In this document: piece by piece, positions 2,225 through 31,364 of the stretch
Numbering within the stretch: the first letter of the stretch is position 1
Layout of the letters: each line of letters begins with the position of its first letter
Source of the DNA: Candidatus Methylomirabilis sp.
GTDB lineage: Bacteria; Patescibacteriota; Patescibacteriia; DYHP01
DNA length: 32,258 bases
Assembly: GCA_020724105.1 (NCBI GenBank)
Contig: DYHP01000004.1
Coordinates: forward strand, 1-32,258
Direction of reading: 5' to 3'
Notes under the pieces: generated by a model
The model's input: the letters and a program-made list of their open reading frames with translations, nothing else
What the model was told of the DNA's origin: nothing
The model's database searches: none
Program-made: the position numbers and the translations under genes

Positions 2225-2686
2225 CTACCTCAACATTTTATCCAATATTTTTCTCATCACCTTCACATCCGCCCGACCCTCTGTTTCTTTCATGGTCAAT
2301 CCGATAAAATACTGAAGCACCTCGACCTTGCCCGATTTATAATCTTGAACTTGTTTGGGATTGTTTTTAATTATGTTTTGGATTATTTCGGCAAGTTTCT
2401 CTTCGTCGTCCATTTTGCCCAGCCGTTTTTCTTCCATGATATGCGACGGGTCGGAGCCGGCCAAAAGCATTTCTTCAAGAACCGTCATTGCCGCCTGGCC
2501 TGAAATCTGATTTTGGTAAATTAATGTAATAAATTCGGCAAAATTTTCAGGCGAAATCCCCCTTCCCTCCCCCTTTATAAAGGGGGATAAGTGGGGGATT
2601 TTATGCTTTTCTATTAAACCGAATAATTTGGTTATTAACCAAGTTGATGTCAATCTAGCGAGTTTCTTTTTATGCTCTTCATTCAT
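2225..2686 (-). CDS. gatB: GatB C-terminal tail (GatB/YqeY-like) domain as a separate or frameshifted ORF
   Basis: The ORF-track protein 2225-2737 ends ...GKVEVLQYFIGLTMKETEGRADVKVMRKILDKMLR, typical of the GatB C-terminus. An internal ATG (MNEEHKKKLARL...) at 2686-2684 lies 11 nt after the TAA of the upstream gatB ORF. The frame differs from 2698-3843. Confidence 0.7.
   Translation of the reverse strand: MNEEHKKKLARLTSTWLITKLFGLIEKHKIPHLSPFIKGEGRGISPENFAEFITLIYQNQISGQAAMTVLEEMLLAGSDPSHIMEEKRLGKMDDEEKLAEIIQNIIKNNPKQVQDYKSGKVEVLQYFIGLTMKETEGRADVKVMRKILDKMLR
2554..2602 (-). repeat. Family C C-run/G-run hairpin (in-frame in the gatB C-terminal ORF)
   Basis: AAATCCCCCTTCCCTCCCCCTTTATAAAGGGGGATAAGTGGGGGATTT. 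It translates as IPHLSPFIKGEGRGIS. Confidence 0.7.
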
Positions 2687-2697
2687 AAAATGGGAAA

Positions 2698-3843
2698 TTA
2701 AATCTCTTCTTCGTGTTCCGGTTGTGATTTGACCCACTCATAAAGCTCTGATATCACTTTTTCGGTGTAATTGGCGAGGTGTAAGTCGTCGGTTAAAATT
2801 TTGGCGTCCGAAGCGTTAAAGCCGTATTCGTCTTGGAATCTCTGGCGTTTGGCAGCGGGCAATTCGGGAATTTTGTTTTTGAGCATCTCTCGAAATTCAA
2901 TCAAATTAAGCGGCGGGGTGTCGGGTTCGGGGAAGTAGCGGTAATCGTGCGATTCTTCCTTGATCCGCTGCTCCTCGGTGATGCCTTTTGTTTCATTCCA
3001 ACCGCGCGTTGATTGATACTTTGGCGGTTTGCCTTTTTCAAAAAGTTTTGTTTGGCGGATGATTTCATACTCCAGGGCGCGTTCGACGGCTTTGAAGGAA
3101 TTAAGATTTTTGATTTCGGTCTTCGGGTTAATAGGTCCTATGGGTCCAATAGGACTTATGGGTCCTAAAGGAGATAAAGAGATGTTGGCGTCAACTCGTA
3201 GATGGCCTTTTTCCATATCGGCGGAGGTAATGCCGAGATAGCGCATTATGAGCCGCAATTCCTGAAGAAAAATTTTCGCTTCCTGCGGGGAGCGGATGTC
3301 GGGCTCAGTAACGATTTCTAAAAGCGGGGTTCCTGAACGATTGAAATCAATGTATGTAGAAGCCATGTGCAAAAGCTTGGCCGCGTCTTCTTCAAGGTGG
3401 ACGCGCGCGAGGCGGATTTTAGTAGAAGCAGATTGACGCTGATTGAGTGCGCTGATTAACGCTGAAGAACTCCCTCCCTTACCCTCCCCCTTTTCAAGGG
3501 GGAGGGATGGGGTGGGGGATATTTCAAGATAACCTTGCCGCCCAATGGGTTTATCAAACTGTGAAATTTGGTAACCTTTGGGCAAGTCGGGGTAAAAATA
3601 ATTTTTGCGGTCGAATTTTGAAAAATCCAAAATCCCGCAATTTAAAGATAGTGCGGCGAGCACCGCATATTCTATCGCTCGCTTGTTTGGAACCGGCAAC
3701 ACGCCCGGATGACCCATGCAAACGGGGCAGATGGTGGTGTTGGGGGATTTGTCTTCGCCGGAATTGTCACAGGCGCAAAACATCTTAGATTTTGTTTTGA
3801 GTTGGACATGGATTTCTAATCCTATTATTGGAATATAATTCAT
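2698..3843 (-). CDS. gatB: Asp/Glu-tRNA amidotransferase subunit B, N-terminal catalytic part (ends early at TAA 2700-2698)
   Basis: MNYIPIIGLEIHVQLKTKSKMFCAC..., RVHLEEDAAKL and EIKNLNSFKAVERALEYEIIRQ are GatB hallmarks. It carries two in-frame repeat insertions (3470-3520 and 3129-3168). Confidence 0.85.
   Translation of the reverse strand: MNYIPIIGLEIHVQLKTKSKMFCACDNSGEDKSPNTTICPVCMGHPGVLPVPNKRAIEYAVLAALSLNCGILDFSKFDRKNYFYPDLPKGYQISQFDKPIGRQGYLEISPTPSLPLEKGEGKGGSSSALISALNQRQSASTKIRLARVHLEEDAAKLLHMASTYIDFNRSGTPLLEIVTEPDIRSPQEAKIFLQELRLIMRYLGITSADMEKGHLRVDANISLSPLGPISPIGPIGPINPKTEIKNLNSFKAVERALEYEIIRQTKLFEKGKPPKYQSTRGWNETKGITEEQRIKEESHDYRYFPEPDTPPLNLIEFREMLKNKIPELPAAKRQRFQDEYGFNASDAKILTDDLHLANYTEKVISELYEWVKSQPEHEEEI
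3129..3168. repeat. 9-mer family, in-frame in gatB
   Basis: TAATAGGTCCTATGGGTCCAATAGGACTTATGGGTCCTAA, translated as LGPISPIGPIGPIN just before the conserved EIKNLNSF block. Confidence 0.8.
3470..3520 (-). repeat. Family C hairpin (in-frame in the gatB N-terminal ORF)
   Basis: CTCCCTCCCTTACCCTCCCCCTTTTCAAGGGGGAGGGATGGGGTGGGGGAT. It translates as ISPTPSLPLEKGEGKGGS. Confidence 0.7.
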
Positions 3844-16907: not shown

Positions 16908-18434
16908 ATGGAAATCTTAATCGTCTTAATACTGGCCGCGGCCTGCGTCGGCGGTTTTTTGGGTTATTTAATCAGAAGCGAGGTGGCTAAAAGAAGGGCG
17001 GCGAGCGCCGAGGCGCGCGCGGGAAAAATCATAAGCGACGCCAAAACTCGAGCCCAGGAATTTTTAATAAGAACAAAAGAAAAAGGGCTGCAAATCATTG
17101 AGGAAGCCAAGAAAGAAGAAACCGAGAGAAGAAAAACATTGCTTGAACACGAAAAAAGATTGGAAAAAAGAGAATCGCTCTTTGACCAAAAACTTTTGGA
17201 ATCCCAGGAAAAGCAGCAAAAACTGCAGGACAAACTGCGCGAAATCGAGGAGATAAAATTAAAAATAAACCAATTAAAAGACCGAATATTGGGGGAATTG
17301 CAAAGGATTTCATCGCTTAGCGTGGAGGAGGCCAAGCAAGAAATTTTGAAACGCGTGGAAGACGACGTGAAAGACGAAGCGCTTTCAAGAATCAGGAAAC
17401 TTGAACAGACCGCGGCGGAAGAACTTGAAAACAAAACAAAAGAACTGATTGGCGATATCTTGCAAAGAGTGGCGATTTCGCACGCTGTGGAAATCACCAC
17501 CACCAGCGTTAATTTGCCCAACGACGAAATGAAAGGAAGAATTATCGGCAAAGAAGGCAGAAACATCAGGACCATAGAACAATTAACCGGCACCGAACTT
17601 ATTATTGACGAAACGCCGAACACAATAACCGTTTCAAGTTTCTCCCCCATCCGCCGCCAAATCGCCAAACGGGCGCTCGACAAACTCATTGCCGACGGCA
17701 GAATCCAGCCGGCGCGCATTGAAGAAGCGATTGACATCTCCAAAAAAGAATTGGCGATAGAAATTAAAAAAGCCGGCGAAGACACTTTGTATTCTTTGGG
17801 GCTTGAAATCGCGGGATACGACCCAAAGCTCATCCAAATCTTAGGCAGATTGAAATTCAGGACAAGTTACGGACAAAATGTTTTGCAGCACTCAATCGAA
17901 GTGGCGTACTTGTCCGCGCTTTTGGCCCAAGAATTGGGGCTCAACGCTTCATTGGCGAAAAAAGGCGGTTTGTTCCATGACGTCGGCAAGGCGGTTGACC
18001 AGGAAGTGCAGGGAACTCATCCTGAAATCGGCTATAATATTTTGAAAAAATTCGGCCTTCCCGAAGACGTCGCTTATTGCGCCTTGGGACATCATGAAGA
18101 CAAGCCAAAAACCATTGAAGCGATATTGGTGAAAACCGCCGATGCCATATCGGGCGCGAGGCCGGGCGCGCGCAAAGAAACGCTTGAACAATACATCCAA
18201 AGGTTGGAAGATTTGGAAAAAGTCGCCACCGGTTTTTCGGGCGTGGAAAAAGCCTACGCCATCCAAGCCGGCCGAGAAATCAGAGTTTTCGTTAAACCCG
18301 ACCAAATCGACGATTTGTCGGCGTTTAATTTGGCTCGCGACATTGCCAAACAAATAGAAACGGAATTAAGATACCCGGGCGAAATCAAGGTGACGGTCAT
18401 CAGGGAAACCCGCGCCATTGAATACGCGAGATAA
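16908..18434 (+). CDS. rny: Ribonuclease Y
   Basis: N-terminal TM helix, coiled-coil, KH domain (GRIIGKEGRNIRTIE) and HD domain (HSIEVA...LFHDVGKA...GHH). Confidence 0.93.
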   Translation: MEILIVLILAAACVGGFLGYLIRSEVAKRRAASAEARAGKIISDAKTRAQEFLIRTKEKGLQIIEEAKKEETERRKTLLEHEKRLEKRESLFDQKLLESQEKQQKLQDKLREIEEIKLKINQLKDRILGELQRISSLSVEEAKQEILKRVEDDVKDEALSRIRKLEQTAAEELENKTKELIGDILQRVAISHAVEITTTSVNLPNDEMKGRIIGKEGRNIRTIEQLTGTELIIDETPNTITVSSFSPIRRQIAKRALDKLIADGRIQPARIEEAIDISKKELAIEIKKAGEDTLYSLGLEIAGYDPKLIQILGRLKFRTSYGQNVLQHSIEVAYLSALLAQELGLNASLAKKGGLFHDVGKAVDQEVQGTHPEIGYNILKKFGLPEDVAYCALGHHEDKPKTIEAILVKTADAISGARPGARKETLEQYIQRLEDLEKVATGFSGVEKAYAIQAGREIRVFVKPDQIDDLSAFNLARDIAKQIETELRYPGEIKVTVIRETRAIEYAR

Positions 18435-18484
18435 TAAGACCTTTAGGACCTATAGGACCCATTAGTCCGATTGGACTCATAAGA
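18434..18484. repeat. 9-mer family, rny-ymdB spacer
   Basis: ATAAGACCTTTAGGACCTATAGGACCCATTAGTCCGATTGGACTCATAAG. Confidence 0.8.
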
Positions 18485-18492
18485 TTTAATTT

Positions 18493-19326
18493 ATGACCAT
18501 ATTATTCTTCGGCGACATAATGGGCAAAATCGGCCGCAAGGCCGTAGAAAAAATAACGCCCAAGTGGAAAAAGAAATACAAACCCGATGTTATCATCGCC
18601 AACGGCGAAAACCTGGCGCACGGCATTGGCATTACCGAAAAAACGGCGCGCCAAGTTTTTGACGCGGGCGTTGATTTTTTAACCGGCGGCAACCACACTT
18701 TTGATAAAACAAGCGACCTCTATATATGGAACGACGAAGTTTTTGAAAAAAAATTGCTTCGTCCGGCGAACTTAACCCCCCTAATCCCACCCCTTATTTT
18801 AAGGGGGGGCAAGGAGGGATTACCGGGCGAAGGGGTGAAGATAATTGATGTTAAAGGAAATAAATTAATGCTTATCAATCTAATGGGTAGAGTGTTTTTC
18901 AAAGAAGAATACCTGGACCCGTTTAAAATGATGAATGAAATCTTGAAAGACAAGCCCAAAGACATTAAATGCGTTATTTTGGATTTTCACGCCGAAGCGA
19001 CATCGGAAAAAAACGCTTTGGGCTGGTATTTGGACGGGGGAATTTCCGCGATAATAGGCACGCACACGCACATCCCGACAGCCGACGCGAAAATCCTGCC
19101 GCAAGGCGCCGCTTACATCACCGACGTCGGCATGGTCGGCGCCAGAGATTCGGTGCTCGGCGAGAATAAAGATGCCATTATTAATGCTTTTTTGACTGAC
19201 AGCGGATTTAAACATGACATTCCGGAAAAAGGCGAAGCGATAATCGGCGCGGTTTTATTGAAAATCGACGAAAAAACCGGCAAGGCGAAAAAAATTGAGA
19301 GATTGGAAGAGACAATTAAAATTTAA
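18493..19326 (+). CDS. ymdB: YmdB-family metallophosphoesterase (TIGR00282-like)
   Basis: MTILFFGDIMGKIGRKAV...ANGENLAHGIGIT...GGNHTFDK...DFHAEATSEK...GTHTH, with conserved rny-ymdB synteny. Contains a hairpin-derived insert at 18774-18822. Confidence 0.85.
   Translation: MTILFFGDIMGKIGRKAVEKITPKWKKKYKPDVIIANGENLAHGIGITEKTARQVFDAGVDFLTGGNHTFDKTSDLYIWNDEVFEKKLLRPANLTPLIPPLILRGGKEGLPGEGVKIIDVKGNKLMLINLMGRVFFKEEYLDPFKMMNEILKDKPKDIKCVILDFHAEATSEKNALGWYLDGGISAIIGTHTHIPTADAKILPQGAAYITDVGMVGARDSVLGENKDAIINAFLTDSGFKHDIPEKGEAIIGAVLLKIDEKTGKAKKIERLEETIKI
18774..18822 (+). repeat. Family C hairpin (in-frame in ymdB)
   Basis: AACCCCCCTAATCCCACCCCTTATTTTAAGGGGGGGCAAGGAGGGATT. It translates as LTPLIPPLILRGGKEGL. 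Confidence 0.7.
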
Positions 19327-19327
19327 C

Positions 19328-19356
19328 TGGACTTATAAGTCCTATAGGTCCTATAA
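19328..19356. repeat. 9-mer family after the ymdB stop
   Basis: TGGACTTATAAGTCCTATAGGTCCTATAA, just before the terminator hairpin. Confidence 0.75.
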
Positions 19357-19361
19357 AATAA

Positions 19362-19390
19362 ATACCCCCGATAAAATCGGGGGTATTTTA
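19362..19390. terminator. Intrinsic terminator (bidirectional) after ymdB and the small minus-strand ORF
   Basis: ATACCCCCGAT-AAA-ATCGGGGGTAT is a perfect 11-bp stem, followed by TTTA. The left flank is A/T-rich. Confidence 0.75.
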
Positions 19391-19439
19391 GATTTAACTC
19401 TTCTCACTTGGTAATTCTTCTCACTTAGGAGAGGTTTGC

Positions 19440-19607: not shown

Positions 19608-19784
19608 TTTTGTTCTCCTTTTGCCCCGAATCACACAGGGTTCGGGGTAACCCTGCACTCCGCGCGCTGTGGGGTTAAATTTTTAAAGCGCTTTCATCTA
19701 ATTTAAGAATAATGGATTGGGGCGCTTTGTTAATTAAGAATAAAAAATCCTTGTTGTTTTTCTTAACATTGTTTTTCTTGATAA

Positions 19785-19813
19785 TTGACTCGCTTTCTAC
19801 AATCTGATAAAGT
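19785..19813 (+). promoter_or_regulatory. Putative promoter for the Lon-family gene (TTGACT-17-TAAAGT)
   Basis: TTGACT at 19785-19790, a 17-nt spacer, and TAAAGT at 19808-19813. An AGAGGAG Shine-Dalgarno sequence precedes the ATG at 19869. Confidence 0.35.
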
Positions 19814-19868
19814 TAAATTAACGCAAAAAGCACCTTAAAAACCTGAAAATAAAGAGAGGAGTTGAACA

Positions 19869-22286
19869 ATGGATAAAAGAAAACTGGAAGCCAAAAGTTT
19901 AAGAAGGACTATTGACCCAAAAGACCTCGAAGGCAAGAATGTTGAAGAAGATATCATCGGCCAGGAAAGAGTCAAAAGAGCTCTCGGGCTTCTTGAAATC
20001 AAAGGCAAGGGTTACCATCTTTTCGTGGCTGGGCCCGCGGGCACTGGGAAAACAAAACGGGTCTTGGCGGAACTCGAAAAAATCGCTTCGACAAAACCGA
20101 CGCCGCCAGACCTCTGTTACGTTGAAAATTTTTCGAAACCGGACGAACCGCGTCTCATTGTTTTTCCCGCGGGCACGGCGAAAAAATTCGCCGAAGACCT
20201 GCCGCATGCAGTAAATATCGTTCAGACAAGAATCGCTCTGGCAGAAATGGAGCCTGAGTTTACAAAGGCCCGCGACCTCATTAACATCCATGTTCAGGCG
20301 GAACTTGAAAAAAAACTGCAAAAATCCAAGATTATCAAAGAAGGGAAAGCAAAAAACATCCGCCTCATTTTCACAACGCCGGGAAAATTTATCGTCTCGT
20401 TTGAAACCAAGGATGGAACAGTGGAAGTTAAGTTAGAAGATTTCTACGACGACCACAACAAGGCAAACGCGGTAAAACAGGATTCGGAAATGACCGAGGA
20501 AATGAAAAAGCAAATCACCGAAGACCTGAAAAACAAATACTGCGGCAGATTTGAAGAAATCGCTGAATTTATATGGGTCGTCTGCATCAAATTCCTCGTC
20601 CCCGCAACGGAAGAAGCGCAAAAACTCCATCAAAAGGCGCTTAACGAACATTACAACCACTGCGTCAAATCCACTCTTGCCTCTTTTGCCAAAATGTATC
20701 CGTCGGCGCGGGAGCATCTCCAAGACCTCGGCAATGAATTCTTGAAAAATATCAACATCTATAATCTGTATAACCTGAATCCCGCTTTCCTCCGTAAGGC
20801 TAATCCGGAAACGCAAGCCGCCATTCTTCTAAAACATGAACAACTTGCCAAGGTTAATGTCGCGGTCGACAATAGCGGAACAAAGGGCGCGCCGATTGTT
20901 ATTGAAACCAACCCGACATACCAAAACCTCTTCGGTTACATCGAGAAAATCGAAACAAAAGACGGTTTTATTAAGCCTACCTCCCAAAACATCAAAGCCG
21001 GCGACATCCACAAAGCCAACGGCGGATACCTCATTATCGACGCCCGAAACATTTTCAACCAGTACTTAGGTTTTGCAATCTGGTGCGCTCTCAAACGAAC
21101 GCTTAAAGACGGCAAAATAACCTTAAGAGGCCCGCGCGAATCTTTGGATTTGTCAGTTCCCTACCTCAGGCCGGAAGCGGCGCCGCTCGACATAAAAGTG
21201 ATTTTAGTGGGCAGCAAGTCGCTTTATAGCGCGCTGAATGACCATGACGACCAGTTTTCATCGCTGTTTGAAAAAGCGGAAATAGAAAGCGAATCGGATT
21301 TTACCGCCGAACTTTGCGATCGCCTCACCTCTCACTTGCGCAAATATTCTTGCGATAAAATCGGTAAGCCCATCACTCCGGCGGCTGTAGCGCGAATCCT
21401 TGAATACGGCTTTGAACTGGTGGAGTCGCAGGAAAAAATCAGCATGCAAATCGGCAAATTGGAAAGACTGGCGCAAGAGGCCGCTTTGTATTCCGAGGAG
21501 GACAAAATCTACGTTGAAGCGGTTATAAAAGCGCTCGAAGAAAAAGAGTTCCGCAACAATTTGATTGAAGAAAGATACCTTGAATACATCGGCAAGAACT
21601 TTTTGAAAATTGACATTCTTGGCAAAAAAGGCGGTGAAATCAACGCCATGAGCGTCCCGCGCCATGACAATCACGAATTCGGCCACCCCTCTAAGGTGAC
21701 CTGCAACGTTTTTGCCGGAAAAGGCGGTCTGATTTTTATTGACAGAATCATTAAACAAACCGGCCCGATTTTCAACAAAGCTGCGGAAATCATGGGTTCG
21801 TGGCTTCACAAAGAATTTGCCAAAAACAAACACTTGTCGTTTACGGCAAAAATCTGTTTTGAACAGAATTACTACGGCCTTGAAGGCGACAGTGCCTCAA
21901 TCGCCGAAGTTGCCGTGCTGGTTTCGGAAATTTCCGGCATCCCAATAAGGCAAGATTTGGCCGTCACCGGTTCAATGAACCAAAAAGGCGTTATCCAGCC
22001 AATTGGCGGAGTCAACTGCAAAATCAAAGGATTCTACAAAGCCTGCCAAAAAATCAATTTCACCGGCACGCAGGGCTTGGTGATTCCAAGGGACAACGTC
22101 AATGACCTGATGCTGCCGAAAGAAATCGTTCAAAGCGCGGCGGAAGAAAAATTCGCCATTTATCCAGTCGAGAGAATCGAGGAAGCGCTTGAAATCTTGC
22201 TTGACGCGGACTGGCTGGAAATCAAAAAAGCAATGGAAAAGGGACTTGAGCCTTTCTACTACGAAAAGAAAAAAACTGGTTTTTAA
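19869..22286 (+). CDS. Lon-family protease with N-terminal AAA_32-type ATPase-like domain (YcbZ/LonH-like)
   Basis: GQERVKRALGLLEIKGKGYHLFVAGPAGTGKTK...DLCYVENFSKPDEPRLIVFPAG at the N-terminus. The C-terminal S16 domain has GLEGDSASIAE...AVTGSMNQKGVIQPIGGVNCKIKG (Ser-Lys dyad context). Confidence 0.8.
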   Translation: MDKRKLEAKSLRRTIDPKDLEGKNVEEDIIGQERVKRALGLLEIKGKGYHLFVAGPAGTGKTKRVLAELEKIASTKPTPPDLCYVENFSKPDEPRLIVFPAGTAKKFAEDLPHAVNIVQTRIALAEMEPEFTKARDLINIHVQAELEKKLQKSKIIKEGKAKNIRLIFTTPGKFIVSFETKDGTVEVKLEDFYDDHNKANAVKQDSEMTEEMKKQITEDLKNKYCGRFEEIAEFIWVVCIKFLVPATEEAQKLHQKALNEHYNHCVKSTLASFAKMYPSAREHLQDLGNEFLKNINIYNLYNLNPAFLRKANPETQAAILLKHEQLAKVNVAVDNSGTKGAPIVIETNPTYQNLFGYIEKIETKDGFIKPTSQNIKAGDIHKANGGYLIIDARNIFNQYLGFAIWCALKRTLKDGKITLRGPRESLDLSVPYLRPEAAPLDIKVILVGSKSLYSALNDHDDQFSSLFEKAEIESESDFTAELCDRLTSHLRKYSCDKIGKPITPAAVARILEYGFELVESQEKISMQIGKLERLAQEAALYSEEDKIYVEAVIKALEEKEFRNNLIEERYLEYIGKNFLKIDILGKKGGEINAMSVPRHDNHEFGHPSKVTCNVFAGKGGLIFIDRIIKQTGPIFNKAAEIMGSWLHKEFAKNKHLSFTAKICFEQNYYGLEGDSASIAEVAVLVSEISGIPIRQDLAVTGSMNQKGVIQPIGGVNCKIKGFYKACQKINFTGTQGLVIPRDNVNDLMLPKEIVQSAAEEKFAIYPVERIEEALEILLDADWLEIKKAMEKGLEPFYYEKKKTGF

Positions 22287-22293
22287 AAATTAT

Positions 22294-22322
22294 AGAGCCT
22301 TGTTAGCAAGGCTCTTTTTTGT
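22294..22322 (+). terminator. Intrinsic terminator after the Lon-family gene
   Basis: AGAGCCTTG-TTAG-CAAGGCTCT is a 9-bp stem, followed by TTTTTTGT. Confidence 0.8.
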
Positions 22323-22327
22323 TAAAA

Positions 22328-22400
22328 TCCGCCCAAGAGGAGTCGAACCTCTAACCATCTCCTTAAGAGGGAGCCGCTCTGCCAGTTGAGCTATGGGCGG
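22328..22400 (-). tRNA. tRNA-Lys (anticodon CUU), CCA not encoded
   Basis: Hand-folded: CCGCCCA TA GCTC AACTGGCA GAGC G GCTCC CTCTTAA GGAGA TGGTT AGAGG TTCGACT CCTCT TGGGCGG A. There is one mismatch at the top of the anticodon stem. Confidence 0.8.
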
Positions 22401-22409
22401 TTGTCGGAA

Positions 22410-22440
22410 TGGTGGGAGGGCAAGGTTGAGCTATGGGCGG
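22410..22440 (-). repeat. Duplicated 16-nt 5' end of tRNA-Lys fused to a CCCTCCCACCA motif
   Basis: 22425-22440 is identical to 22385-22400. The minus-strand read is CCGCCCATAGCTCAAC-cttg-CCCTCCCACCA. The same architecture occurs at 12796-12846. Confidence 0.7.
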
Positions 22441-22450
22441 GCAAACAAAA

Positions 22451-22527
22451 ATCCTATAAGTCCTATAGGACCTATAAGTCCTATGTGTCCTATAAGTCCT
22501 ATAAGTCCTATAGGACTTATAGGCCCG
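22451..22527. repeat. Tandem array of about 8 units of the 9-mer TCCTATAAG/TCCTATAGG
   Basis: TCCTATAAG TCCTATAGG ACCTATAAG TCCTATGTG TCCTATAAG TCCTATAAG TCCTATAGG ACTTATAGG. It contains the perfect 24-bp palindrome CTATAAGTCCTATAGGACTTATAG and overlaps the rpoC stop codon. Confidence 0.9.
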
Positions 22528-25500
22528 ATTTATAACCGGTTCCGGTCGGAATCAATCTGCCGATGATGACATTTTCCTTCAAACCTTCAAGTTTGTCAAG
22601 GCGGCCGGTTGTCGCGGCGTTAATCAAAACGCGGGCGGTTTCCTGGAACGAAGCAGCTGATAAAAAGCTCATTGACGAGAGCGAAACGCGACTGATGCCC
22701 ATAAACAAATCCTTGGATGTCGCCTTTTTACCGCCGCTTTTCGCCATTTTCTCGTTCTCTTCTTCATAATACCAGCGCTCGACAATCTCGCCGGGCAACA
22801 TTTCAGTATCTCCCGGATCCTCAATTAACACGCGGGAAAACATTTGTTTTATGATTACCTCGATATGCTTGTCGTTTAATCTCTGACCTTGTGAACAATA
22901 AATTTTTTGGATGTTTTGGAGAATATAGCGTTGCGTCGCTTCCTTGCTTTTGAAATGATAGAGTTCTTGCAAATCCAAACTGCCTTCGGTCAAGGGATCG
23001 CCGGCCGTAACATATTCGCCATCCTTGACATGCAAGACATAGCCGGCCGGAATGATAAATTCCTTGACGATTTTCCCCTGCCAAGTCACTTTGACGATTT
23101 TGTCGCTTAGGGAGACCGCGCCCGATTTTTTGGCAACGACAAACTTACCATCTTCGCGCTCGATTAAAACCTCACCTTCCTTGATTTTCCCGCCGTCTTT
23201 TGCTCTGACTTTGTCTTTTGCGCCGAAGCGGTACGAAAATTCTTCGCTTCCTTCTTTTGACACTTCAACGATTCTCTGGGTTAAAACCGTACCCTTGTGA
23301 GCCTTGTCAATGTCTTTCACCTTGACTTCGCCGTCCGTGTCCGCGGTTATGGCGCGGTTTTTCGGCGGACGCGCTTCAAAAAGTTCTTCAACGCGAGGCA
23401 AACCTTGGGTAATGTCGAGCCCGGCCACGCCGCCGGTATGAAACGTTCTCATGGTAAGCTGAGTGCCTGGCTCGCCGATTGATTGGGCGGCGATAATGCC
23501 GACTGGCGCGCCTTCTTTGACAATCTGGTTATAAGCCAAATCATGGCCGTAGCATTTGGCGCAAACGCCTTTTTGGGATTTACAGCTTAAAACGCTCCTG
23601 ACTTTAGATTCTTTAATCTTGTGAGCGGCGAGTTCGCGGGCGATTTTGTGAGTAATCAACTCCCCCTTTTTCAACAATATTTTATTATTAACATCTTTCA
23701 GGTCTTGGGCTAAGAATCTGCCGACGAGCCTCTCAAAAAAACTCATGCCCAAATCGTTACTTTCTTCGGCGGTAATGAATATGCCGTCAGACGTCCCGCA
23801 ATCGTCCATTCTGATAATTATATCCTGTGAAACATCAACCAAACGCCTGGTTAAATAACCGGATGAAGCAGTGCGGACTGCGGTATCCGCCAAGCCTTTT
23901 CTCGTGCCGTGAGTTGAAATGAAATATTCCAAAACATCCAACCCTTCCTTAAAACTACGCTTGACCGGCAACTCAATAACGTTGCCGGCGGGATTAACCA
24001 CCAAACCCTTCATGCCCATCATCTGGGTGAGCTGCCCCCAGCTGCCGCGCGCCCCGGAATCAATCATGCTGTAGACCGAACCGCCTTTGTCCAATTTTTC
24101 CTTGCAGAGCTGGGTTATTCTGTCTTTGGTGGCGTCCCAAATGCCGATGATTTTGCTGTACTTTTCCTTAAAAGTCAAAAGCCCTTCCTCGTAAAGCGAC
24201 TCAATCCCGGCCACTTGTTTGTTGGCTTCTGTTATTAATTCGTTCTTTTCGGGCAAATCGGGAACCTCTTCCAAACTCCAGGTGTAACCAGATTTGGTGA
24301 TGTAGTAAAAGCCCGTTTCCTTGATGTCGTCCAAAATCTTAGCCGTCGCTTCGGGACCGTAAAATTCAAGACACATCCTGATGATTTCGCCTAACTTTTT
24401 GACATTTAGCGCCTCATTTTTGAAAGGTATTTCGGCCGGCAATCTTTGCCAGAAAATAACGCGGCCGACCGTGGTGTCCGTAATTTTCCCCCTGAATCTC
24501 ACTTTTATCGGTTCGTGCAAGGTAATTTTGCCAAGTTCATAAACCATTAGCGCCTCTTTCTCGTCGGCAAATGATTTGGGCTTGTCGCGATTTTTGCCCC
24601 ATGCTCCCAAAGTCAAAAAGTAACAGCCCCAGGCAATGTCTTTGTTTGGCGTGGCAATAGGCTGGCCCGTGCCCGGCTTTAACAAATTGCGGACGGAAAG
24701 CATGCGTTCGGCGGCCTCTTTATTGGCTTCCTCGGTGAGAGGAACGTGAACAGCCATCTGATCGCCGTCAAAGTCCGCGTTATAAGCAACGCAGACCATC
24801 GGATGGATTTGAATCGCTTTGCCTTCCACAAGCACCGGCTGAAAGGCCTGGATGCCCAAACGATGGAGCGTCGGGGCGCGATTGAGCATCACGTAGGCGT
24901 TCTTGATAATGTCTTCCAAAATATCCCAAACCTCCGGTCTGTCGCTTTCAATGAAACGATTGGCGCTTTTAATGTTGTGGACGAAGTCGGCGAGGATTAA
25001 TTTACTGATAAGAAAAGGCCTGAAAAGCTCAAGCGCCATTCTTTTCGGCAGACCGCATTGGTGCATTTTGAGACTAGGATTGACGACAATGACGCTGCGA
25101 CCGGAGTAATCAACCCGTTTGCCCAAAAGATTTTGGCGGAAACGGCCCTGCTTGCCTTTCAAGATGTCGGCGAGCGACCTTAATTCGTGTTTCGCTCCCG
25201 CGCCTGCCGCTCCTTTGGTTTGGCGGGCGCTGTTGTCAATTAAAGCGTCAACCGCCTCCTGCATCATTCTTCTTTCGTTTCGGCAAATAACCTCTGGCGC
25301 GTTCAACTCCGTCAATCTTTTCAAACGATTGTTTCTGTTTATAATGCGGCGGTATAAATCGTTTAAATCAGAAGTGGCGTAACGTCCGCCGTCAAGCGCC
25401 ACCATGGGCCTTAAATCCGGCGGAATGACGGGCACATTCTTCAAAATCATCCATTCGGGCCTGATGTTTTGTTTTTTTAAACTCTTTAAAAGTTTCAGGC

Positions 25501-31319: not shown

Positions 31320-31364
31320 ATAAGTCCTATAAGTCTCCTATAAGTCCTATAGGTCTTATAGGTT
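31320..31364. repeat. 9-mer family, rnj-trpS spacer
   Basis: ATAAGTCCTATAAGTCTCCTATAAGTCCTATAGGTCTTATAGGTT. Confidence 0.8.

Follow-up and report, generated by a model that had tools for sequence, protein, structure and literature searches.

Nested-hairpin palindromic repeats within conserved protein genes of a patescibacterial genome

How did compact, hairpin-forming C-run/G-run sequences come to lie within the reading frames of conserved enzymes in a small bacterial genome, and what becomes of them when the host genes are expressed? The question is raised by a 32,258-nucleotide stretch of DNA (the window, by which the whole stretch is meant; GenBank DYHP01000004.1, positions 1–32,258, forward strand), which is contig C11 of a draft genome (G000; 776 kb, 53 contigs, 43.5% GC) assigned by its GatB relatives to Patescibacteria, close to the Uhr-, Magasanik- and Falkowbacteria groups. 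An earlier sequence-only reading of the window had pointed to three related C-run/G-run sequences in gatB and ymdB. All three were found at the places claimed, and a profile search (nhmmer) assigns them to one repeat family. We propose, with a probability of about 0.78, that the family consists of selfish nested-hairpin palindromic repeats, similar in behavior to the Rickettsia palindromic elements (RPEs), and that its intragenic members are translated as tolerated surface loops.

Three hairpin sequences in gatB and ymdB

Copy 1 (2554–2605, minus strand; AAATCCCCCTTCCCTCCCCCTTTATAAAGGGGGATAAGTGGGGGATTT; nhmmer score 36.8) is a member of the family termed A below, and lies in frame in the open reading frame (ORF) for the C-terminal, YqeY-type part of GatB (minus strand; open frame 2225–2737, from ATG 2225–2686; GatB_Yqey, PF02637, E = 9.4e-36), where it encodes KIPHLSPFIKGEGRGIS. 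Copy 2 (3466–3522, minus strand; CTCCCTCCCTTACCCTCCCCCTTTTCAAGGGGGAGGGATGGGGTGGGGGAT; score 29.0), a family A variant, is in frame in the catalytic N-terminal gatB ORF (2698–3843, minus strand, 381 residues; GatB_N, PF02934, E = 1.7e-106) and encodes ISPTPSLPLEKGEGKGGSS. Copy 3 (18770–18822, plus strand; TTAACCCCCCTAATCCCACCCCTTATTTTAAGGGGGGGCAAGGAGGGATTA; score 29.3), a decayed family A member, is in frame in a ymdB-like metallophosphoesterase gene (18493–19326, plus strand, 277 residues; YmdB, PF13277, E = 3.4e-88) and encodes NLTPLIPPLILRGGKEGL. The Pfam matches of the host ORFs agree with the earlier placement of the copies within conserved enzymes, and the translations hold the Pro-rich then Gly-rich peptides SPTPSLPLEKGEGKGG, SPFIKGEGRGIS, and TPLIPPLILRGGKEGL exactly as first quoted. 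The Pfam matches span more residues than profile positions for both GatB_N (309 residues on 270 positions) and YmdB (268 on 253), which indicates inserted residues in these two proteins.

The sequence-only reading had also given gatB two copies. Both are in gatB, but each is in an ORF of its own, since the gene is split in this genome: a TAA at 2698–2700 ends the catalytic ORF, and the next ATG (2684–2686) follows 11 nt downstream in another frame. In 30 relatives gatB is one open frame of about 500–550 residues; the break may reflect a gene that is truly split, a frameshift that depends on recoding, or a one-base error of assembly.

Folding of the sense RNAs, compared with dinucleotide-preserving shuffles, gave −30.9 kcal/mol (z = −3.8) for copy 1, −36.1 kcal/mol (z = −3.1) for copy 2, and −26.2 kcal/mol (z = −1.0) for copy 3; in all, the folds computed for the window copies span −26 to −41 kcal/mol. 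The strong hairpin predicted at the outset for all three sequences thus holds for both gatB copies, whereas the ymdB copy is a weaker, partly decayed hairpin.

Alignment with orthologues identifies the three segments as additions to the host proteins. In YmdB, the element corresponds to a 13-residue gap in all 11 orthologues compared, which are from the same class. The closest homologue in a large protein collection (P0005; 265 residues, 79% identical) lacks the insert, and comparison of its gene with the window DNA gives a clean 36-nt gap, equal to 12 codons, at roughly 18777–18812. Another YmdB homologue, P0008, carries a different insert of 20 residues in the loop that is used by the hairpin in the window, so this loop is a tolerant site that has been used repeatedly. 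P0008 and a further homologue, P0010, have the module SPTLSRGGVMSEGHSVFHE in common at a second site; among YmdB homologues, tolerant loops have been struck repeatedly across lineages.

Copy 2 is positioned at the tip of the β-hairpin that joins the GYLEI strand to the RVHLEEDAAK block, a region to which the sequence-only reading had given only a short segment in other GatB proteins. The Thermotoga maritima GatB structure (3AL0_B) indeed has a 4-residue turn at this site, compared with 30 residues in the window protein. The 11 GatB orthologues aligned have 13–20 residues here versus 33 in the window protein, the orthologue from the nearest relative genome (G001) is likewise gapped, and the HMMER match is broken at the site in five of five bacterial GatB structures. 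At the copy 1 site, the G001 orthologue has a 7-residue gap. The peptides are therefore missing from the YmdB and GatB orthologues, distant ones included.

An AlphaFold2 model of YmdB (mean predicted local distance difference test score, pLDDT, 88.2; predicted template-modeling score 0.89) has its lowest-pLDDT stretch at the insert: the blocks 91–100 and 101–110 average 66 and 52, respectively, and residues 97–99 fall below 50. The insert is thus modeled as a disordered loop. Placement of the elements at tolerant surface positions is supported in both hosts examined, YmdB and GatB.

Size, architecture, and folding of the family

Simple core matches served to build an nhmmer profile, which returned 60 loci from the draft genome, so the motif is plentiful well beyond the window; a structure-based regular expression had proved too messy as a census method and was replaced by the profile. 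The loci reduce to 58 unique ones because contig C5 contains an internal duplication, in which the recG region occurs twice (1–2800 and 19700–22830) with identical copies of the element (812/20825 and 2045/22058). This doubling is probably an assembly wrap-around or a duplication. The simple pattern CCCCCTTN{1,8}AAGGGGGN{3,9}GGGGG has 31 matches in the genome, and its reversed control has none. DNA uptake sequences were considered and rejected as an identity for the family: the density of about one per 13 kb is too low, and the elements are insertions rather than motifs built by substitution.

Two architectures are recognized. Family A elements are about 48–54 nt long and form two nested stems, an outer ATCCCCC/GGGGGAT stem and an inner CCCCCTTT/AAAGGGGG stem, with the consensus AAATCCCCCTCAATCCCCCTTT-loop-AAAGGGGGA-nnnn-GGGGGATTT. 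Family B elements (about 66 nt) have both outer stems of family A and a third, innermost hairpin, the stem of which varies wholly among copies while pairing is always kept (CCCCGACAAGTCGGGG, CCGACCGAAGCGTCGG, TTCGCCTTCGGCGAA, and TTTCACAAAGTGAAA). A simple hairpin of the form CCCC(C)GAnnnnTCGGGG(G) serves as the innermost stem of family B elements; hairpins of this form, often followed by T-runs, also stand just 3′ of genes at many places in the genome (e.g. 19342–19405, after ymdB), where they look like the standard intrinsic terminators of this genome.

A fold z-score below −2 is reached by 96% of all copies, and mean free energies by class range from −24 to −47 kcal/mol, compared with −12 kcal/mol for random 70-nt genome windows. 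Folding is as strong in coding copies as between genes. No Rfam family reaches its gathering threshold at the elements; in the window only tRNAs pass, and at the copy first noted at 3470 there are sub-threshold matches to generic hairpins (19–25 bits against thresholds of 34–79). RNAalifold applied to 27 family A copies returned six pairs with little covariation and paired the wrong runs, because the C-run and G-run arms allow the alignment to slip. As covariation is uninformative for this reason, the structural argument relies on the folds of individual copies and on family B, in which the inner stems are swapped.

Reading frame and host genes

In a simple greedy ORF map of the genome (approximate coding density 86%), 40 of the 60 loci (39 unique), or about 67%, lie wholly inside long ORFs, and the remaining 20 or so are intergenic or at gene edges (about 19 unique loci outside genes). 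All 23 host ORFs tested against Pfam are bona fide conserved genes. Their products act in tRNA charging or modification (GatB, in two ORFs, GluRS, AspRS, LeuRS, PheT, TsaD, and ThiI), DNA replication and repair (RecG, DnaX, and a UvrD/PD-(D/E)XK helicase-nuclease), the cell envelope (MurD, a second Mur ligase, Lgt, two GT4 glycosyltransferases, and PAP2), and glycolysis (PGK and iPGM, the latter a single gene with two copies); YmdB, a radical-SAM protein, a methyltransferase, and an FAD protein complete the set.

All 39 host proteins were searched against G001, the nearest relative genome (800 kb, from the same family), and sites were counted as comparable where one alignment spans the element. 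At 28 of the 31 comparable sites, the G001 protein has a gap of 7–32 residues exactly at the element.

The host frame is open through the element in every intragenic copy, although only about a third of arbitrary frames are free of stops (for coding copies, 29 of 80 alternative sense frames; for intergenic ones, 39 of 120 frames). This bears on the suggestion that the segments never reach the protein, being either excised, as a mini-intron or by bulge-helix-bulge-type splicing, or skipped by the ribosome in the manner of T4 gene 60 and the byp elements. Compact, stable hairpins of 27–66 nt within ORFs do resemble byps, and the host lineage is known for odd insertions in its rRNA genes, reportedly described by Brown and co-workers in 2015. 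However, excision or skipping would not enforce an open, in-frame state, and each of the 39 intragenic copies keeps the frame and lacks stops; moreover, the net inserts are whole codons, and the elements end in inverted repeats, whereas bypassing requires take-off and landing codons that match. We consider loss of the segments before or during translation very unlikely; the simplest reading is that the intragenic copies are translated within the host protein, as their frames suggest. Inspection of the ORFs that flank the approximately 20 non-ORF copies revealed none that parts two halves of one gene; the flanking genes are distinct (e.g. those for adenylate kinase, PilC, RecO, a sigma factor, and ThpR).

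The peptides produced would be alike (PP..PF.KGG.GG; examples that cover inserts are LEISPTPSLPLEK and GEGKGGSSSALISALNQR), and Pro/Gly loops are common as linkers, so that a linker motif selected independently at the protein level, or duplicated as a module, might be imagined, with the hairpin as a by-product. Family A copies, however, occur in every reading phase (9:5:3) and run in either direction with respect to the host gene (10:7), which indicates that the repeated unit is DNA rather than peptide. One DNA consensus yields differing peptides, about 19 copies are intergenic, and the likeness is strongest in nucleotides, untranslated copies included. The peptides resemble one another only because, whatever the frame, runs of C encode Pro and runs of G encode Gly. 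The mixture of phases and orientations and the intergenic copies effectively refute a protein-level origin, to which we attach a slighter chance still than to removal of the segments.

A functional role for the DNA or RNA structure requires closer consideration. The sequence-only reading had raised the possibility that such hairpins stall ribosomes or RNA polymerase or serve as nuclease or protein-binding sites; in a fuller form, the elements would be cis-acting and kept in ORFs as candidate pause sites for ribosome or polymerase, determinants of mRNA half-life, RNase III-type targets, or protein-bound DNA cruciforms. In favor of such a role, folding is very stable (−30 to −50 kcal/mol) and no weaker inside genes than between them, and the innermost stem of family B changes fully yet remains paired. 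Many intergenic copies lie directly 3′ of stop codons, several of them 20–90 nt past the stop, and many end in GGGGGATTT(T). These positions would suit intrinsic (rho-independent) terminators, but the U-runs are inconsistent and mostly only 3–4 long, and two thirds of the copies lie in ORFs. Against a cis-acting role, the roughly 39 hosts are functionally unrelated and carry the element at scattered positions in mixed orientation and phase, the same genes work without it in the nearest relatives, its presence across the class is patchy, the ymdB copy has decayed, and an Rfam family match is lacking. A dispersed selfish repeat fits these features better than does a designed regulatory hairpin, given the unrelated hosts and intergenic sites, the mixed phase and orientation, the absence from relatives, and the patchy distribution, and we regard cis-regulatory function as a general explanation as unlikely.

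Spread, mobilization, and related systems

Among the other genomes of the same family, both have zero copies, and 6 of 28 further relatives have 3–12 pattern matches; G001 and G002 are examples of relatives that lack the hairpins. Across the class sample, 76 of 301 genomes have at least one match, with the reversed control nearly always at zero; counts include 103 (G156), 71 (G041), and 51 (both G077 and G101). The unit in G156 is a double hairpin, CCCTCCCTTTGACAAGGGAGGG-nnnnnn-CTCCCCCTTGTCAAAGGGGGACTAAGGGGGATTTGTTG, present in approximately 100 near-identical copies that are mostly intergenic (e.g. L227, L241, and L247), and this near-identity indicates a recent burst. Sampled copies are mainly intergenic in G003, G005, and G013 as well as in G156. 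In-frame copies occur in G041, in the genes for MetRS, TatD (two), an M16 peptidase, a radical-SAM protein, and an MraY-type transferase, and also in a GT4 glycosyltransferase gene of G005 and a GT2 glycosyltransferase gene of G013. Patchy occurrence across the whole class, with sequences particular to a lineage, is the mark of a repeat that proliferates. It also bears on whether the elements are products of assembly or amplification, such as chimeric fold-back reads: the genome is a draft of 53 contigs, two of which end in copies (C24:11–40 and C41:39–68), but the reading frames of essential genes are preserved, and the 76 genomes with related hairpins were assembled independently. We give an artefact almost no weight.

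Under the explanation we favor, that of selfish, translated repeats, a nested-hairpin DNA repeat would spread through a small patescibacterial genome, both between and into genes. Insertion would be largely indifferent to coding sequence, as the share of copies within genes (about 67%) falls only somewhat short of the coding density (about 86%). In a reduced genome composed mostly of essential genes, selection would then retain those events that add whole codons, leave the host frame free of stops, and fall in surface loops. The surviving copies would be transcribed and translated with the host gene, each adding a flexible loop of 7–32 residues, Pro-rich then Gly-rich, and would probably be neutral or slightly deleterious rather than useful.

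Several observations weigh against this explanation. Translation of the copies and the integrity of the mRNA are deduced from sequence. Three of the 31 comparable sites are not clean gaps in G001 (a glycosyltransferase gene, C23:3346; dnaX, C26:19287; and gltX, C5:25812). The net gain at gatB 2554 is only 7 residues for an element of approximately 50 nt; similarly, ymdB has gained a net 36 nt for a recognizable hairpin of about 50 nt. Because net gains fall below the element length, some events seem to swap out native codons rather than simply add to them. The equal folding strength of coding and intergenic copies could reflect either recent insertion or selected structure. Finally, a transposase, donor element, or target-site duplication for the hairpins was not identified: no direct repeats were seen at insertion sites, either in the flanks of copies or in codon alignments with G001, and the search for a parent insertion sequence was not exhaustive. 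The Y1/RAYT genes of the genome (see below) are flanked by a repeat of another kind and do not track the hairpin load. The 5′ flanks of copies are often A-rich, with a tendency to AAAAT, and at one iPGM site (C34:4365), a single case, the native sequence already resembles both termini of the element.

The obvious candidate mobilizer was a transposase of the kind associated with repetitive extragenic palindromes (REPs), the REP-associated tyrosine transposases (RAYTs). Two ORFs of the genome match Y1_Tnp (PF01797, IS200/RAYT-like), at C36:16736–17224 and C34:13979–14740. Repeats of GGAGGGCTnnAGCCCTCCGCTACA, a REP with a GTAG tag and unlike the hairpin family, flank the former; the two together resemble a classical REP/RAYT pair that is separate from the C/G hairpins, and a REP similar to GGAGGGCTnnAGCCCTCCGCTACA is present in the window at 1464–1520. 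Y1_Tnp is present in 163 of 301 class genomes, and by our own tally it is found in approximately 61% of hairpin-rich genomes against a base rate of 54%; none was found in the high-copy genomes G156, G101, G060, G091, and G005. A RAYT/Y1 transposase is thus not supported as the mobilizer, as a different REP flanks the ORF and presence of the transposase does not track hairpin load. We also considered a new, transposase-independent mobile hairpin (e.g. one that uses a single-stranded DNA or replication-fork mechanism) that survives preferentially in coding DNA, or co-option across the class as intragenic RNA or DNA structural signals. Co-option would account for coding copies having stayed as stable as intergenic ones. 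We judge this pair of possibilities improbable overall, though with an appreciable chance of being correct.

The closest precedent for selfish repeats of this type is provided by the RPEs, palindromes of approximately 100–150 bp, nearly half of which lie in frame in unrelated genes and the products of which are predicted to be compatible with the host fold (PMC10969869). RPE-1 to RPE-10 each encode a conserved peptide (Ogata et al., 2000, 2002, as summarized in PMC10969869). As with RPEs, the hairpins are palindromes dispersed in a reduced genome, in frame in unrelated housekeeping genes and absent from orthologues; the extra peptide segments would be compatible with the fold. In contrast, they are 48–66 nt long, about a third of the RPE size, consist of nested stems of C- and G-runs, use three reading phases and either orientation, and occur in Patescibacteria rather than Rickettsiales. 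They therefore behave like RPEs without being members of RPE-1 to RPE-10, from which length, phases, and host set them apart.

REPs, bacterial interspersed mosaic elements (BIMEs), and the RAYT systems involve GTAG/CGTC-tagged repeats that are extragenic by definition (PMC3733652). The hairpins resemble REPs in being short, GC-rich, imperfect palindromes present in tens of copies in a genome that encodes two Y1_Tnp proteins, but their termini (AAATCCCCC...GGGGGATTT) have no GTAG or CGTC, about two thirds of them are intragenic, and their load does not track Y1_Tnp. [quoted passage not shown] Like MITEs, the hairpins are non-autonomous short inverted repeats with some in-frame fusions, and their intergenic copies can look like rho-independent terminators (a stem, then ATTT). 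Unlike MITEs, which are typically 100–400 bp, the whole element is one shorter hairpin, and no terminal inverted repeats that bracket a unique core were found.

Two mitochondrial systems are also relevant. Yeast mitochondrial GC clusters, on which Butow, Perlman, and co-workers worked in the 1980s to 1990, include an optional in-frame cluster in var1. They share with the present elements their nature as mobile, GC-rich palindromes of approximately 30–60 bp that are found between genes, with at least one translated in-frame insert, but they inhabit an extremely AT-rich organelle genome with one or few coding insertions, compared with approximately 39 here in a bacterium of 43.5% GC. The byp elements of Magnusiomyces capitatus mitochondria were reportedly described by Lang and co-workers in 2014. 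As with byps and T4 gene 60, the present elements are short GC-rich hairpins (27–55 nt in byps) spread across protein genes that would be retained in mRNA; byps, however, contain stops or disrupt the frame and depend on take-off and landing codons that match, whereas the hairpins here are in frame and stop-free and have inverted termini. Within the literature collection searched, no paper on such elements in Patescibacteria was found.

Other repeats are present in the window, some within the same genes. The second half of the enlarged GatB loop, adjoining copy 2, is an ATCAGCG segment (3421–3465, minus strand; SSALISALNQRQSAS) in which this word stands three times, a short repeat of a different type; the genome contains AATCAGCG 54 times in all, including a few tandem arrays on contigs C9, C27, and C48. 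A 9-nt tandem array of a palindromic unit (ATAGGTCCT/CCTATAGGT-type; 3125–3170, minus strand) encodes PLGPISPIGPIGPI in GatB (PIGPIGP), in a loop that is shorter in GatB orthologues, and is a second repeat type in frame within coding DNA. The same array type is found at 1943–1980, read as PIGPIGP in a large ORF (1–2169), and as intergenic palindromes at 22449–22529, 31337–31362, and 18433–18472. Further recurrent in-frame modules in host proteins (e.g. RecG, MurD, ThiI, and membrane proteins of contigs C20 and C49) include IRNPKSEIRN (from ATCCGAA heptamers), CHSDPDGRSGEESRGSP, HSRESGNP, YSPYSPTSRGIGG (family B in another phase), and one of approximately 40 residues, YPPTNS...NRIGGG. These modules suggest additional repeat families in coding DNA.

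RPE-type behavior is itself already known; the points of note here are the scale (a 0.78-Mb genome with approximately 39 such housekeeping genes), how small and how extremely stable the elements are, and the lineage. If the hairpins are selfish repeats, selfish DNA inside protein genes extends beyond Rickettsia to the candidate phyla radiation (CPR)/Patescibacteria, whose genomes are of one of the smallest free-standing bacterial types, and on a larger scale. Approximately 39 housekeeping genes, among them five aminoacyl-tRNA synthetase genes and those for GatB, RecG, DnaX, PGK, and Mur ligases, would each carry a hairpin of −30 to −50 kcal/mol in the mRNA and a Pro/Gly loop in the protein. 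Such insertions may account for part of the unexplained ‘CPR-specific insertions’ in conserved proteins, as well as for contig breaks at repeat copies, and would tell annotators and structure modelers that loops of this kind are repeat-derived. The burst genomes, one with approximately 100 near-identical copies, are good places to seek the mobilizing mechanism, and the host genes form a natural test case for the way in which very stable intragenic hairpins are handled by ribosomes and RNA polymerase.

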